From the IMG/VR virus record IMGVR_UViG_2925919700_000001: a stretch of 54,361 bases of DNA; one strand, given 5' to 3'. Origin of the DNA: a virus (taxonomy: Duplodnaviria; Heunggongvirae; Uroviricota; Caudoviricetes). Made by a program: the position numbers and the translations under genes. Positions within the stretch are counted from its first letter, which is position 1. Every line of letters starts with the position of its first letter. Shown here piece after piece: positions 29,089 to 33,019 of the stretch. The notes beneath the pieces were generated by a model. That model was given only the letters and a program-made list of their open reading frames with translations, was not told the DNA's origin and made no database searches.

Positions 29089-30921
29089 TTAATTTTTGCT
29101 ATCGTCATTAGTGACCGATACACATGATGGCATCCAGTCTTCTGATTCCTCCGTCAGTGTCACGTTTGAACGCAAACCGTGCTTCGTTTTCCGTTTCATA
29201 TACTCCCTGCCATATTCCGCCATTGCCCCCGGCATATCTTTACCGAAGCGCGTCAGTGTTACAGGTTTACCAAACCCATGTGCCCTCATATAAGCCAGAT
29301 AGGCATGATAGAGATACCTGCGTGGGCTGAATGGCACAATTTCAGCATTACCCACTAACAGGCCATCACACATTACCGACGCCATGAGATAGCCGCAGAA
29401 GTCCACCAGCGAATCCCCCTCTCGCTTTATCGCCAGTGCTTCTTCAGATTTCTGCTGCTCATATAACAGGCGTCTGGCTTCGTCCTGGTCAGCAAACCGT
29501 GTAAGCAGATGGCGAATCACTACCGCCAGCTCACCTTCTATTTTTTCCGCCAGCATTGGATCGCGTTCGTTCTCCGGTACAACTTCCGAAAAATTGAATA
29601 TCACCCGACGACGTGAGATCCCCCCGCTGCGGTCACTGAATGACATGGCGTTATTGTTAACCGCCAGCACTACTGCCGGAATACGCGTTGAGTAGGGGGC
29701 TTTGTGTTTCGGGTCAATTGCCACCTTGTCACCGCCTGTAATGGCCTTAATTCCTGCCCCATCACCAGCGTAGCGGGTCATATCCGGCATGATAATCAGC
29801 GAAAAGCCAACCACTAACGCGCGTTCCCTTGCATCTTCCAGCGCCTTCATGCTTGCCGATACTGTGTTGGCCTTACCCGCCAGCATGGTGCAAATCTCCG
29901 CCATCACGCTTTTACCACTTCCCCCTGGACCTGTTACCTCAATGAATAACTGCCAGTCGTACCGGTTCGCCAGCACCATGAATAATGCAGCCAGTACGCG
30001 ATCCGCCTTGCGGTCATTCTCAGCCACCGAACGGCGTAACCACTTCCAGAAATTCGGCGCATGTGTTGCCAGCGTTTCCCCCTCTGCTGGTGGGCTGAAA
30101 GGTAATTCACTGGCAATTAACAACCAGTCGTTTTTGTTATGCTCCCGAAAATTACCTGTTCTGGTATCAAATACCCCGTTACTGAATCCAATCAGGTTAC
30201 GGGCTGTATTCCCCATAACAGGCAAACTTAACTTCATGGTATCGACCGCCGATTTAATGGCGTTCTGCGAATAGCTGATCTCCGCATCAATGAAAATCTG
30301 TGCCATAGCTCGCTGTAATTCTTTATCCTGTACTGGCTCCCATACAACGCCGTTGTAATGGTGAACAGTGTCAGAGTCAGCATGAATCGCCAGTTCACCG
30401 CCATAATGTGCCAGGAGAACTTCGCCGCGTTGACTTGCTCCCATCTGGTTAAGCGCCAGTGATGAAGCGTTATCGTCTTTTACCCGCTCTTTTTTCTTTA
30501 CAGGCAGTTCAACTACCTTTTTCTTTTCCGCCTGCTCTGCCCGTTCACGTTCCAGATATTCGCGCCAGTTCTCCCGTTTCTGGCTGTGCATTCCTTCAGG
30601 GTAATAATCAGCATCCCTGACACCTGCCGCTGCCAGTTTCTGCCCGATGGTATTAACAAGCCCCGGACGCAATAACCCCGCCTGGTAGAGACGCACGCGA
30701 TAGCGTCCGTCCGGTACGATTTGCAGGTTGTCCAGTTCGGCAAGTTGTTGCTCTCCAAGCCAGACAGGTGGCACGTTATCGCCAGCCAGTCGCCCGTCCT
30801 GTTCCTGCCACTGCTTCGCATGTGCCCACGCATCACTACCCGCAAAAATGATGACTTCCGTCATTTTGTCACGCGGCTGGTGTTTTAAATTTGGCGCTTT
30901 TTTCATTTCGGCTCTCTCCAC
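29089..30921 (-). CDS. Primase-helicase (P4 alpha-like / D5-type, P-loop NTPase)
   Basis: 610 aa; Walker A GPGGSGKS and Walker B-like region; adjacent to cognate-looking iterons as in P4. Confidence 0.65.
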   Translation of the reverse strand: MERAEMKKAPNLKHQPRDKMTEVIIFAGSDAWAHAKQWQEQDGRLAGDNVPPVWLGEQQLAELDNLQIVPDGRYRVRLYQAGLLRPGLVNTIGQKLAAAGVRDADYYPEGMHSQKRENWREYLERERAEQAEKKKVVELPVKKKERVKDDNASSLALNQMGASQRGEVLLAHYGGELAIHADSDTVHHYNGVVWEPVQDKELQRAMAQIFIDAEISYSQNAIKSAVDTMKLSLPVMGNTARNLIGFSNGVFDTRTGNFREHNKNDWLLIASELPFSPPAEGETLATHAPNFWKWLRRSVAENDRKADRVLAALFMVLANRYDWQLFIEVTGPGGSGKSVMAEICTMLAGKANTVSASMKALEDARERALVVGFSLIIMPDMTRYAGDGAGIKAITGGDKVAIDPKHKAPYSTRIPAVVLAVNNNAMSFSDRSGGISRRRVIFNFSEVVPENERDPMLAEKIEGELAVVIRHLLTRFADQDEARRLLYEQQKSEEALAIKREGDSLVDFCGYLMASVMCDGLLVGNAEIVPFSPRRYLYHAYLAYMRAHGFGKPVTLTRFGKDMPGAMAEYGREYMKRKTKHGLRSNVTLTEESEDWMPSCVSVTNDDSKN

Positions 30922-31202
30922 GCGGCAATCATGTTTTTCAGTTCCTGCAGTTTTTTATCCACATCCACACGTGACACATGGTTATTTCTGGAAGTCGGGA
31001 TTTCCCGCCGGAATCTGCTAATAAAGATCTCCACGTTCAGCGAACTATGAAATGAATAGCCATCACGAATAAAATACACACGGTCAAACATCAGTTCTTT
31101 TACCGTTACTCTGTTACCGTTCTTATCCAGATAAATAGCGCCGGGGATAATTTTGGGGTGTGCATAACCGCTGGCAGTCAAGCCAGATAAATATGTTCTC
31201 AT
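30903..31202 (-). CDS. Hypothetical satellite protein (99 aa)
   Basis: ORF only; no recognisable motif. Confidence 0.3.
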   Translation of the reverse strand: MRTYLSGLTASGYAHPKIIPGAIYLDKNGNRVTVKELMFDRVYFIRDGYSFHSSLNVEIFISRFRREIPTSRNNHVSRVDVDKKLQELKNMIAAWREPK

Positions 31203-31208
31203 GATTAT

Positions 31209-31529
31209 TTATCCCCGATTTGAATCAGTATTCGCTTTCTTTATGGCATTTAATGCATCTGTAGCATTTTCAATGGTGCACCGTAACGAAATATCAAACT
31301 GCCCAAGCATTGCCAGTAACAAACCGATATTACCCATATCAATGCGCATAGCCTTTTCGTCATAGTCCTCATTTTCTGACGCATGCCACATCAGGCTACC
31401 AATTGACGCAATACCCATTGATATATTGTCAGTAGCCCCATCCGCAGCGGAATAAACCTTTTTAGCAATATCATGCTCACAGTTAAAATGCGGATTAATC
31501 AGGTACTGGTAATTTGACATATCAGGCAT
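31209..31529 (-). CDS. Hypothetical satellite protein (106 aa)
   Basis: ORF only; no recognisable motif. Confidence 0.3.
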   Translation of the reverse strand: MPDMSNYQYLINPHFNCEHDIAKKVYSAADGATDNISMGIASIGSLMWHASENEDYDEKAMRIDMGNIGLLLAMLGQFDISLRCTIENATDALNAIKKANTDSNRG

Positions 31530-31821
31530 GGCACACCCCCTGACGAATACGGGCGGCGAATACCATCACGCAGCCAGCCGGGGATTGCTGCCGTGCTTCC
31601 TGTTCGCTGGTGGCCTCAATGGTAATCACGCGCGGTTGTGCCGTGCTCAGGGCGATAAAACGCCAGATGTATTTATTCAGGTTGTGCGAGTCCCGCCCTT
31701 GCGGGTGTGTGGTATGATTTCTCATAGCTACCTCGATACTATCGTTATCGTTGGTGGTTAGAAGCCCGTTGGTGTTGGTAGCACCTGCGGGCTTTGTCTT
31801 TTCATCGATTACCTCAATAAA

Positions 31822-31902
31822 GGTGTCAGCCACTATACTAGTAACAGGTGTCAGCCACGTCAATAGTGTTTTTCCATTTTCTTGTGTGTATACTGTCAGC
31901 CA
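31822..31902. promoter_or_regulatory. Operator-like triple direct repeat (G)TGTCAGCCAC in a divergent intergenic region of the satellite
   Basis: GGTGTCAGCCAC at 31822 and 31847, TGTCAGCCAC at 31893, just upstream of the RHH-like gene. Confidence 0.45.
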
Positions 31903-31924
31903 CCTAATAACAAGGAAATCAGAT

Positions 31925-32104
31925 ATGGCAACGAAAGCAGTTAATGGAAAATCCAAAAAACTTGAGGCACGAGTACCCCATGCAATAGCTGACGCTGTAG
32001 AAAATTTAAAGGAAGAAGGCGAAAGCACTGGGCAATTTATCGTTTCGGCACTTGAAGGCGAGATCAAACGCCGCCAGCGGCGCAAGGCCAAAGAGCAGGA
32101 GTAG
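31925..32104 (+). CDS. Small ribbon-helix-helix-like DNA-binding protein (59 aa)
   Basis: MATKAVNGKSKKLEARVPHAIADAVENLKEEGESTGQFIVSALEGEI... preceded by an AAGGA RBS; the listed ORF 31751-32104 has a spurious N-terminal extension. Confidence 0.45.
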   Translation: MATKAVNGKSKKLEARVPHAIADAVENLKEEGESTGQFIVSALEGEIKRRQRRKAKEQE

Positions 32105-32161
32105 CCACTATCAGCGGCATAGTTTGAAGAGCTCCGGCGCATTGATTTACAGGACAGCACC

Positions 32162-32341
32162 ATGAGCGACACAGAATCAACCAAAACACCATCACCAACT
32201 CGTAAGAGACGACGCAAAAATATAGCGCATGAACATGAATCAGAAAGATTCGCACCTTGTTCGTTTGCTCTTGAGAAATTCCTTAAAGAGCACAGGAAAA
32301 AGCTCTCGTTGCAAACCTTGGAACGAACCAAATCTGACTGA
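32162..32341 (+). CDS. Small basic protein (59 aa), hand-translated, absent from the ORF track
   Basis: MSDTESTKTPSPTRKRRRKNIAHEHESERFAPCSFALEKFLKEHRKKLSLQTLERTKSD, directly after the RHH-like gene. Confidence 0.3.
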   Translation: MSDTESTKTPSPTRKRRRKNIAHEHESERFAPCSFALEKFLKEHRKKLSLQTLERTKSD

Positions 32342-32437
32342 TCACATTGCCCACCAGCCGCAAATGTGGCATTGTTGGTGATGCGTTCAAGTTTAGTGTG
32401 TATCCATTGGCGACCGCCCCCGGTCGCCTTTGTTTTG

Positions 32438-33019
32438 TCACTGAATGCGGTTGCCAAAGTAAAACTCAGGCTGATATTCACGTATCAGCCTTTTTTCTTC
32501 TTCCTCCAGCTCACGCTTTTTGCGCTTACATGCCTGTAGCTCCCTCCCCTTCTCGCTGGCACTTATTTGATATTGCTCTTTACGGCGGGAAAAATCCTGT
32601 AATGCGCCCCACGGGATACCATAAGCCCCCGTTTTTCTGATACCTGGTATCACATTCCTGAATACCCAGTTACTGAAACGATGGGCGAACGTGCCAGGAG
32701 TAACAGCTTTGCGACTTCTGGCGATCAGCTTGTAAAAACCAGATTCAGAAACGACGCTATGATTTGGATTTCCGCGAATACCGTAGCTTAAAGCGACGGT
32801 ATTCTTCTCATCCACATCCAGAGCTTTTAGAGCATCGCGTGAGTTGCTTATTTCCAGAGCTTCACAAACATCCTTTGCAACAAACCACGGATCGCCGTTC
32901 AGATACACCACACGAACATCCACGCCATCAAAGCGCAGAACGACAAGATCACGAATATCGCAGAATTTTTTTACTGAACGAGCGTACCCCTTGCCCGTCA
33001 CGGCAATATTTTTATTCAT
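32438..33019 (-). CDS. Bro-N / antirepressor-like protein
   Basis: 193 aa; N-terminal region resembles the Bro-N domain; C-terminal charged coiled-coil (KRKKRELEEEEKRLIRE). Confidence 0.45.
   Translation of the reverse strand: MNKNIAVTGKGYARSVKKFCDIRDLVVLRFDGVDVRVVYLNGDPWFVAKDVCEALEISNSRDALKALDVDEKNTVALSYGIRGNPNHSVVSESGFYKLIARSRKAVTPGTFAHRFSNWVFRNVIPGIRKTGAYGIPWGALQDFSRRKEQYQISASEKGRELQACKRKKRELEEEEKRLIREYQPEFYFGNRIQ

Follow-up and report, generated by a model that had tools for sequence, protein, structure and literature searches.

The 54,361-nucleotide virus record IMGVR_UViG_2925919700_000001 (Caudoviricetes), referred to below as the window, contains a lambdoid prophage whose large terminase gene, terL, is interrupted by a satellite of ~11.3 kb lying in the same orientation as terL, as judged from the sequence and from domain searches. 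A preliminary description of this DNA had drawn attention to three genes between the primase and alpA genes of the satellite, which it took for uncharacterised accessory cargo. The most useful result appears to lie between those genes, where comparison with related elements points to a repressor-operator cassette, that is, a small repressor gene with matching sites, which is probably the on/off switch of the satellite and which is shared with EcCICFT073, the prototype phage-inducible chromosomal island (PICI) of E. coli. In the explanation that we favor, and to which we give slightly more than even credence, the region covers two parts of a helper-embedded PICI (HE-PICI) in terL, its Bro zone and the beginning of its early operon; a YlcI-family protein would act as the switch, bro would be expressed by read-through, orf106 would encode an effector, and a protein of the DUF4222 family would be an accessory of the replicase.

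The three genes exist as the preliminary description listed them, all on the minus strand, at 30903-31202 (99 aa), 31209-31529 (106 aa), and 32438-33019 (193 aa), and they are flanked by the primase gene (29089-30906) and alpA (33079-33282). The 909-nt "gap" between the second and the third (31529-32438) holds three overlooked genes (an Icd-like open reading frame (ORF), ylcI/ynfO, and orfS), a promoter with three repeats, and a terminator. The ylcI/ynfO-family gene (31925..32104, plus strand; NF041551, E=4e-17, 61.9 bits against a cut-off of 30) runs divergently from the early operon and encodes a 59-aa candidate ribbon-helix-helix repressor; its dN/dS is 0.2-0.3. A consensus scan places a predicted early promoter, TTGACG-17-TAGTAT, at 31835..31863 on the minus strand, directed toward the Icd-like gene. 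Within 80 bp stand three direct 10-bp repeats of TGTCAGCCAC, the only exact copies in the window. The first, O1 (31821..31842, core at 31824-31833), abuts the -10 element and covers the expected start of early transcription; O2 (31846..31867, core at 31849-31858) lies in the spacer and touches the -35 element; and O3 (31894..31903) directly follows the conserved motif GTGTATACT upstream of ylcI. A 319-aa ORF on the minus strand (31522-32481) was considered as a gene here and rejected, because its family match (Icd-like) is confined to the last ~90 residues and the rest, antisense to ylcI and orfS, does not look protein-like.

We compared this arrangement with 15 E. coli loci (L001-L005, L007, L008, and L010-L017, including EcCICFT073 as L017 and Sakai Sp7/CP-933C) and one Superficieibacter locus (L006). 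In every locus, a small basic protein is encoded divergently beside the early promoter, either of the YlcI/YnfO type (59 or 101 aa) or Arc-like (52-64 aa). In the 12 YlcI-type loci, the repeats stand at about -100, -75, and -30 from the ATG of the small gene, and their sequence follows the protein allele. Eight repeat classes were found: GTGTCAGCCAC in the window, L001, L005, and L007; TGGATTCCA in L012; GTGTAAGACAC in L013; GTGTCGGACAC in L014; GTGTAAGTAAC/CTTACAC in L008; GTGTGTTTCA in L011 and L015; GTGTGATT/GAATCACA in L016; and GTGTGGCCCAC in EcCICFT073. The flanks are conserved in these loci, with GTCAA (the early-promoter -35) at the same place in all of them and GTGTATAYTG before the third repeat. 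The three Arc-like loci have repeats of their own (AGGTGGTCAC, GGTAATTACC, or TAGGTGTACAC), nearer the ATG. Five loci that carry five different repeat classes, L001-L004 and L012, have one and the same integration-zone regulator, AlpA (WP_001095275.1). The full cassette region is present in 106 of 5426 complete E. coli genomes, the collection in which all frequencies given here were counted, and ~840 E. coli genomes match the cassette.

In the Protein Data Bank (PDB), the Arc-like type matches Arc (E=0.034) and Mnt (E=0.087) best and other ribbon-helix-helix proteins next, and in Pfam it reaches Arc, HicB, and RHH_5 below threshold. Among aligned YlcI sequences, variation is concentrated at positions 11-15, before an invariant R16; positions 11-15 would be the expected place of a ribbon-helix-helix DNA-reading strand. 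Because the repeat sequence co-varies with the protein allele, we infer that the small divergent protein binds the repeats, and because two of the repeats cover the early-promoter core, it would repress the operon of the Icd-like ORF, orf106, the DUF4222 gene, and the primase. The repeats also cover the start of its own gene, which it probably represses as well. Such repression would keep the replication genes silent, and exchange of repressor and repeats together, as a cassette, would give rise to the specificity classes. A full-text literature search, of incomplete coverage, found no earlier report of an exchangeable repressor-operator cassette in Gram-negative PICIs.

The gene that follows the small repressor-like gene differs between loci. 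In the window it is orfS (32162..32341, plus strand), a conserved 59-aa ORF that starts 57 nt after ylcI and is unannotated in the closest genome; its homologs are hypothetical proteins with the same spacing in L013-L017, share the core HESERFAPCxFALEKFLKE, and have a dN/dS of 0.28. The ylcI-orfS unit ends in an intrinsic terminator of its own, found by the terminator scan at 32409..32428 (plus strand), and lies as a plus-strand unit between bro and the early promoter with its repeats. Elsewhere the co-oriented gene 3' of the small gene encodes a SWIM zinc-finger protein (L002:4285-4641) or a 147-aa predicted membrane protein (L004:4292-4735), and this position, expressed in the resting state, looks like the true place for cargo. 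At L002:4099-4257 (plus strand; E. coli EJN001), an unannotated 52-aa Arc-like ORF lies between an Icd-like pseudogene and the SWIM zinc-finger gene, with a AGGTGGTCAC repeat pair.

The three listed ORFs are all annotated coding sequences in RefSeq E. coli genomes, with a Shine-Dalgarno-like sequence upstream of each, and their pairwise dN/dS values are below 1 (0.18 for bro, 0.17-0.52 for orf106, and 0.31-0.45 for the DUF4222 gene, the latter two from few substitutions), indicating purifying selection. For the 193-aa protein, the Bro-N assignment of the preliminary description was borne out (PF02498, E=1.7e-18, 67.4 bits against a cut-off of 25.6, residues 35-125; phrog_2593 "anti-repressor," 2e-83), as was its charged C-terminal tail, rich in K, R, and E at residues ~145-183. 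Its gene, bro (32438..33019, minus strand), is found in 185 genomes. Embedded elements and L014 have it after alpA; L013 has a gene of the AntA/AntB family in its place, and L005, L008, L015, L016, and EcCICFT073 lack it. Bro is 88-100% identical in amino acid sequence across PICIs, with a nearly invariant C-terminal half, and 94-100% identical over the five loci that share the identical AlpA.

Between alpA and bro lies a strong intrinsic terminator (33045..33065, minus strand; 8-bp stem with 6 GC pairs and a T6 run), only ~25 nt from the bro ATG. The terminator is kept in seven loci; in L011, L012, and L014, the stem sequence is altered and the same hairpin and T-run are present. The alpA gene itself (33079..33282, minus strand) is the last gene of the integration zone and encodes a 67-aa helix-turn-helix regulator/excisionase of the AlpA type (weak HTH_17 match; phrog_66 excisionase/regulator). 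Because the conserved terminator leaves no room for a promoter, bro would be made only on read-through. In the embedded state, antiterminated late transcription of the helper from terS-terL' would be the most evident source of read-through; that such transcription would be resistant to terminators is drawn from lambda Q biology. The hairpin at 32409..32428 lacks a T-run on the minus strand and is not predicted to halt the transcripts of bro, which would continue antisense through orfS and ylcI into the early operon. Bro-N domains bind DNA, and Bro would be a DNA-binding regulator with a target common to many PICIs rather than the variable repressor.

The early operon begins with the Icd-like ORF (31522..31725, minus strand; 67 aa; NF033153, E=1.4e-19, 69.8 bits against a cut-off of 25), which heads it in all compared loci and is overlapped there by the next gene by 4-11 nt. 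In the window, the Icd-like ORF and orf106 overlap by 8 nt, orf106 and the DUF4222 gene are separated by 6 nt, and the DUF4222 gene overlaps the primase gene by 4 nt. A 15-codon ORF (MKRQSPQVLPTPTGF; 31765-31812, minus strand) lies in the leader of ~100 nt that separates the Icd-like start from the predicted early promoter; in other elements, longer Ash/Icd-type ORFs contain coding sequence homologous to this leader (phrog_6196 alignment).

The second gene, orf106 (31209..31529, minus strand; 106 aa), is an orphan that matches phrog_15327 only. It occurs in 473 genomes, always at full length and with at least 90% identity, and in 7 of the 15 compared loci as well as the window; in the others, two to four unrelated small ORFs lie between the Icd-like and DUF4222 genes. 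A word-index search recovered only close enterobacterial relatives, and an exhaustive HMMER search of 1.8 billion representatives gave about a dozen enterobacterial relatives of ~100 aa with identities down to 25%, adding a few relatives at 25-43% and three long repeat proteins. The latter were rejected as homologs, as one of them, P0058, consists of tandem TPR-like repeats, whose similarity to a single helical hairpin was taken to be inflated by repetition. A single locus in the genome collection carries a relative of orf106, that of Superficieibacter; here too the gene belongs to the early operon of a PICI, with a different replicase, and an AAA_25 helicase gene lies two genes downstream of it. 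The AlphaFold2 (AF2) model of orf106 (pLDDT 80.5) is a long helical hairpin with helices at residues 19-51 and 58-104, and a fold search with it returned generic helical hairpins only, none below E=0.5.

In satellite P4, ORF137 has an Icd-like domain (E=7.8e-21) and overlaps by 8 nt onto epsilon, the helper derepressor, and orf106 shows no homology to P4 Cnr or epsilon. Because its variable slot corresponds to the position of P4 epsilon, the most likely role of orf106 is that of a helper- or host-directed effector, with a slot that diversifies with the helper, an assignment to which we give a rather low probability. By position, orf106 would be a better antirepressor candidate than Bro. The comparisons would also fit a wider reading that we hold tentatively, at somewhat less than even probability: a YlcI/YnfO or Arc-like ribbon-helix-helix repressor, exchanged together with three operators over the early promoter, in at least 11 specificity classes among E. 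coli satellites including that of EcCICFT073, would be overridden in cis in embedded satellites by antiterminated late transcription of the helper crossing the alpA terminator and running antisense through the repressor gene, and the gene in the orf106 slot would encode an epsilon-like helper antirepressor.

The third early gene (30903..31202, minus strand) encodes a 99-aa protein and ends in a stop codon that overlaps the primase ATG (ATGA). The preliminary description left all three genes without a confident assignment; no established biochemical function was found for any of them, and in this respect it stands, but the 99-aa protein is a clear member of the DUF4222/RgdR family (PF13973, E=7e-17, 61.1 bits against a cut-off of 27). 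It aligns without gaps over all 99 residues with RgdR (ECs1581) of enterohaemorrhagic E. coli (EHEC) Sakai, with 31% identity. Where the ECs1581-type subfamily has the RGD motif at residues 20-22, as RGD or xGD, the window protein has PGA. The AF2 model (mean pLDDT 75.6, 87-89 over residues 21-60) is a small beta-barrel with a C-terminal helix. PDB sequence searches with the 99-aa, 106-aa, Bro, and YlcI proteins returned nothing meaningful.

In every compared locus, ECs1581/ECs1582 of Sakai included, the DUF4222 gene overlaps the start of the replicase gene by 4 nt. In the window the replicase is a D5-type primase-helicase of 605 aa from its ATG (29089..30906, minus strand; D5_N, DUF5906, and Pox_D5), whose residues 1-130 (30517-30906; phrog_2850, function not assigned) are 96% identical to the product of L005:3718-4107 and 75% identical to that of L007:2075-2464. 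Three catalytically unrelated kinds of replicase (D5-type primase, DUF927, and RepA/AAA_25 helicase) share this N-terminal domain of ~130 aa and always have DUF4222 upstream. Because all three kinds share the domain, DUF4222 appears to be tied to it and not to the catalytic type. The protein would thus be a small beta-barrel protein of the RgdR family made with the replicase, a positional analogue of P4 Cnr to which it shows no homology. Its most likely role, to which we give a little less than even probability, is that of an accessory factor or regulator produced together with the replicase, and the effects of RgdR on the host may be a secondary consequence. None of the three genes shows clear homology to housekeeping replication accessory proteins, the outcome that the preliminary description had named as counting against its idea, and the link of DUF4222 to the replicase is one of gene arrangement only. 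A tblastn search with the 99-aa protein found no match among 50,697 phage records, and the 2.5-kb region gave no nucleotide match in the same records, so these alleles appear to be restricted to satellites; the whole 2.5-kb combination, at a coverage of at least 80%, was found in only 3 genomes.

Several observations weigh against the explanation that we favor. The YlcI type has no Pfam or PDB match to the ribbon-helix-helix fold, and its alignment with the Arc-like type, in register and with an hhalign E value of 3.5e-4, has a probability of only 37%. Promoter-like sites in the region are no commoner than in shuffled sequence (7 found against 8.8 expected), and the early promoter matches the consensus at 9 of 12 positions. 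For EcCICFT073, which has the same layout, AlpA was found to be an activator, and whether a repressor exists was left open (PMC6092414). Read-through of the terminator by late transcription of the helper is deduced from geometry and from a published model (PMC10111431), and the roles proposed for Bro, orf106, and the DUF4222 protein are drawn from position and fold class alone. The effect documented for RgdR concerns virulence and motility genes of the host rather than replication (PMC3378721).

The preliminary description saw the three genes as interchangeable accessory cargo for helper interference or defence, with the Bro-N protein as an antirepressor that senses or derepresses the helper, and we consider this unlikely. 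In its favor, the PHROGs Bro-N families and the phage tblastn matches carry antirepressor labels, a gene of the AntA/AntB antirepressor family stands at the bro position in another PICI, and the slot at the position of P4 epsilon has variable content. The cargo and antirepressor idea is upheld in part, for orf106 and not for Bro. The labels are annotation by homology, Bro and DUF4222 are backbone, conserved in PICIs at different integration sites, and the three genes do not form one variable slot. Bro stays 88-100% identical while the repressor-operator cassette changes class, and because it does not co-vary with the cassette, it does not appear to be an allele-specific antirepressor of the satellite's own repressor. 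Nor would an embedded copy need an antirepressor to sense its helper, because in the proposed model helper late transcription reads into the satellite in cis, when the helper is already induced (PMC10111431); EcCICFT073 lacks bro, yet it is induced by helpers. Anti-phage cargo found no support in PADLOC-DB 2.0, where the only two matches, neither of them convincing, paired the 99-aa protein with Cmr7 (E=0.02) and AlpA with a candidate-system model (2e-4), with nothing for orf106, Bro, YlcI, or the Icd-like protein. We likewise doubt that the main function of the DUF4222 protein is global regulation of the host, as for RgdR, which would make it cargo that benefits the bacterium rather than a replication factor. 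RgdR, encoded in O-island 51/CP-933C (Sp7) of EHEC Sakai, also belongs to DUF4222 and is 99 aa long, its gene occupies the corresponding place before the primase gene, and the window protein aligns to it from end to end. When expressed, RgdR activates LEE1 (type III secretion) and represses motility, its deletion lowers secretion, and its RGD motif was reported to be important for LEE activation (Flockhart et al. 2012, PMC3378721). However, identity is limited to 31% with PGA in place of RGD, the gene overlaps that of the replicase in an operon predicted to be silent at rest, and the family is common in strains without LEE. RgdR also alters transcription while binding DNA non-specifically (PMC3378721), so its influence on the host may be a by-product of plasmid-borne expression.

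The remaining two alternatives concern the cassette itself. It is improbable that ylcI and orfS form a toxin-antitoxin or stabilisation pair whose repeats serve its own autoregulation only. Small ribbon-helix-helix proteins are typically autorepressing antitoxins, 13 loci have orfS behind ylcI on the same strand, and one allele matches an Rv0623-like antitoxin family weakly; yet two of the three repeats lie over the -10 and -35 elements of the divergent promoter and not near ylcI, orfS is separated from ylcI by a gap of 57 nt and has no family match, and the Arc-like cassettes keep the repeats and the promoter layout without orfS, with a SWIM protein, a membrane protein, or nothing in its place. 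That the repeats are instead sites for AlpA, Bro, or the replicase, as activator sites or iterons, seems very improbable. Bro, with its DNA-binding domain, would be a candidate for such a role, and so would AlpA, the documented activator of EcCICFT073 (PMC6092414). Against this, AlpA is identical and Bro 94-100% identical in loci with five repeat classes, only the divergent gene changes with the repeats, and the satellite has a separate iteron cluster 3' of the primase, at ~28915-29004.

As the preliminary description stated, the element is a phage satellite. By its sequence it is a HE-PICI, a known satellite type whose terminase-A site group was described by Tommasini, Mageeney & Williams 2023 (PMC10111431); terminase A is one of 14 late-gene HE-PICI sites in that work, and four zones were defined there, Integration, Bro, Replication, and Late. 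The window satellite has these zones in order: Integration (int and AlpA), Bro, Replication (primase and SSB), and Late. Its minus-strand order is int, alpA, the terminator, and bro, followed later by the Icd-like ORF, orf106, DUF4222, and the primase gene; the integrase has Arm-DNA-bind_3 and Phage_integrase domains. Downstream of the primase gene lie iterons, an 81-aa ORF, SSB, a 69-aa ORF, a ClpP-capsid fusion, a tail-assembly-I remnant, and a DUF1441 small terminase. Domain matches assign 34695-35690 to the GpA_ATPase half of terL and 22295-23407 to the GpA_nuclease half; each half, like the satellite genes, is encoded on the minus strand. An att core of ~13 bp, ~CTGGATG(T/G)AGGGT, is repeated at both satellite junctions (~23410 and ~34700), and joining the halves of terL in silico restores the reading frame (...RIASFWM joined to EGPAAAYQ...); excision is a prediction from sequence. 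The split-terL arrangement is also annotated in five further genomes, a near-identical element (98.8% identity) lies within terL of E. coli C6, and related elements elsewhere are in terL or in the portal gene.

Beyond the site and the four zones, the satellite has in common with the described HE-PICIs a captured capsid-protease fusion, tail I, and terS, and an excision that would restore the interrupted gene (PMC10111431). It differs in that their Bro zone contains Bro-network proteins together with C4/isrK-like immunity RNAs, whereas an Rfam search found no C4/isrK-type immunity RNA inside the satellite at E<=1, and the small protein gene with co-varying repeats seen here is not described in that paper. 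The only C4/isrK pair is in the helper prophage, with adjacent matches to C4 antisense RNA and isrK at 45832-46020, a P1 immI-like control region outside the satellite, and another match in the helper, to IS009 RNA, lies near the tail-fibre end (2277-2475), also outside it.

Further observations concern the replication and late genes. Clustered GTTCACC/GGTGAAC repeats (iterons) just 3' of the primase gene (28915-29004), which surfaced as a chance-level Rfam match, are probably the replication origin of the satellite. Three direct copies of an 80-nt element, 83-94% identical, lie at 24705-24784, 28025-28104, and 36328-36407; two copies lie ~190 nt 5' of the small terminase genes of the satellite and the helper, which is the geometry of lambda cosN and Nu1, and the third lies between the SSB and capsid genes of the satellite. 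If these elements are cos sites, the satellite has two, 3.3 kb apart, without explanation. The DUF1441 small terminase gene of the satellite (24066-24638) and its helper copy (35690-36184) share 73-81% nucleotide identity over ~500 nt, and the ClpP-capsid fusion of the satellite (25593-27506, 637 aa) is a diverged copy of a helper ORF (18606-20825, 739 aa). These diverged copies are consistent with late-gene capture by HE-PICIs.

Comparison with known systems places the control region more closely. EcCICFT073 (Fillol-Salom et al. 2018, PMC6092414) has the same order of alpA, divergent ylcI-orfS, Icd-like ORF, small ORFs, DUF4222, primase, 81-aa-type ORF, and SSB, with three repeats at the same positions. 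It differs in that it is not embedded, lying between roxA and phoQ, has no bro, has four other small ORFs in place of orf106, and belongs to repeat class GTGTGGCCCAC. With the RgdR locus, the satellite shares the length of the DUF4222 protein, its full-length ungapped alignment, and the 4-nt overlap onto a satellite primase gene; the differences are those in identity and in the RGD motif noted above.

The preliminary description spoke of P4-like satellites and PICIs in general; this element is not P4-like. In a tblastn search with all P4 proteins against 23400-34710, only int (33% identity) and alpha residues 320-771 (51%) matched, the latter in the C-terminal part of the primase, and P4 sid, psu, delta, epsilon, cnr, and vis had no homolog there. 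The left operon of P4, vis - ORF137 (CI RNA/kil/eta) - epsilon - orf151 - cnr - alpha, nevertheless resembles the early operon of the satellite in having an Icd-like ORF first, an 8-nt overlap onto the next gene, and small ORFs, the last of them just before the primase gene. The two differ in that orf106 is not homologous to epsilon and neither orf106 nor DUF4222 is homologous to cnr, and P4 immunity is the CI RNA, whereas here a divergent protein gene stands in the control region.

The immI regions of P22 and P1 offer a further parallel. In P22 immI (mnt/arc-ant), small ribbon-helix-helix repressors are encoded divergently from the operon they control; in P1 immI (c4-icd-ant), the icd ORF is translationally coupled to the next gene, and antirepressor-type genes lie near in immI regions. 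The satellite resembles them in its divergent small candidate repressor, its coupled Icd-like ORF, and its antirepressor-type genes nearby, but its operon ends in a replicase gene, not an antirepressor gene, and no C4-type RNA was found in it. Homology to P22 Arc and Mnt is weak and is seen for the Arc-like cassette type only. The Stl/Str system of staphylococcal pathogenicity islands, in which a divergent repressor with many specificity variants controls the excision-replication operon (PMC6092414), would be similar in placing a divergent repressor of many variants over the satellite replication operon. The proteins of the two systems are unrelated, Stl being a large helix-turn-helix repressor; here no helper-protein inducer is deduced, and int and alpA lie on the other side of the switch, oriented like the controlled operon.

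The three genes alone are ordinary backbone and slot genes of a described satellite family, and no defence function is indicated for them. Their annotation is improved, to an RgdR-family protein, an orphan in the epsilon slot, and a terminator-gated Bro-N protein, and the tie of DUF4222 to the shared replicase domain suggests a native role for RgdR, a virulence regulator of EHEC. The cassette, a by-product of the comparison, matters more than the genes themselves. Induction of E. coli PICIs runs via the activator AlpA, and the global repressor was described as unclear (PMC6092414). If true, the cassette would be a testable candidate for that switch in E. coli PICIs, the prototype included, and it would explain immunity-like specificity classes among co-resident satellites.

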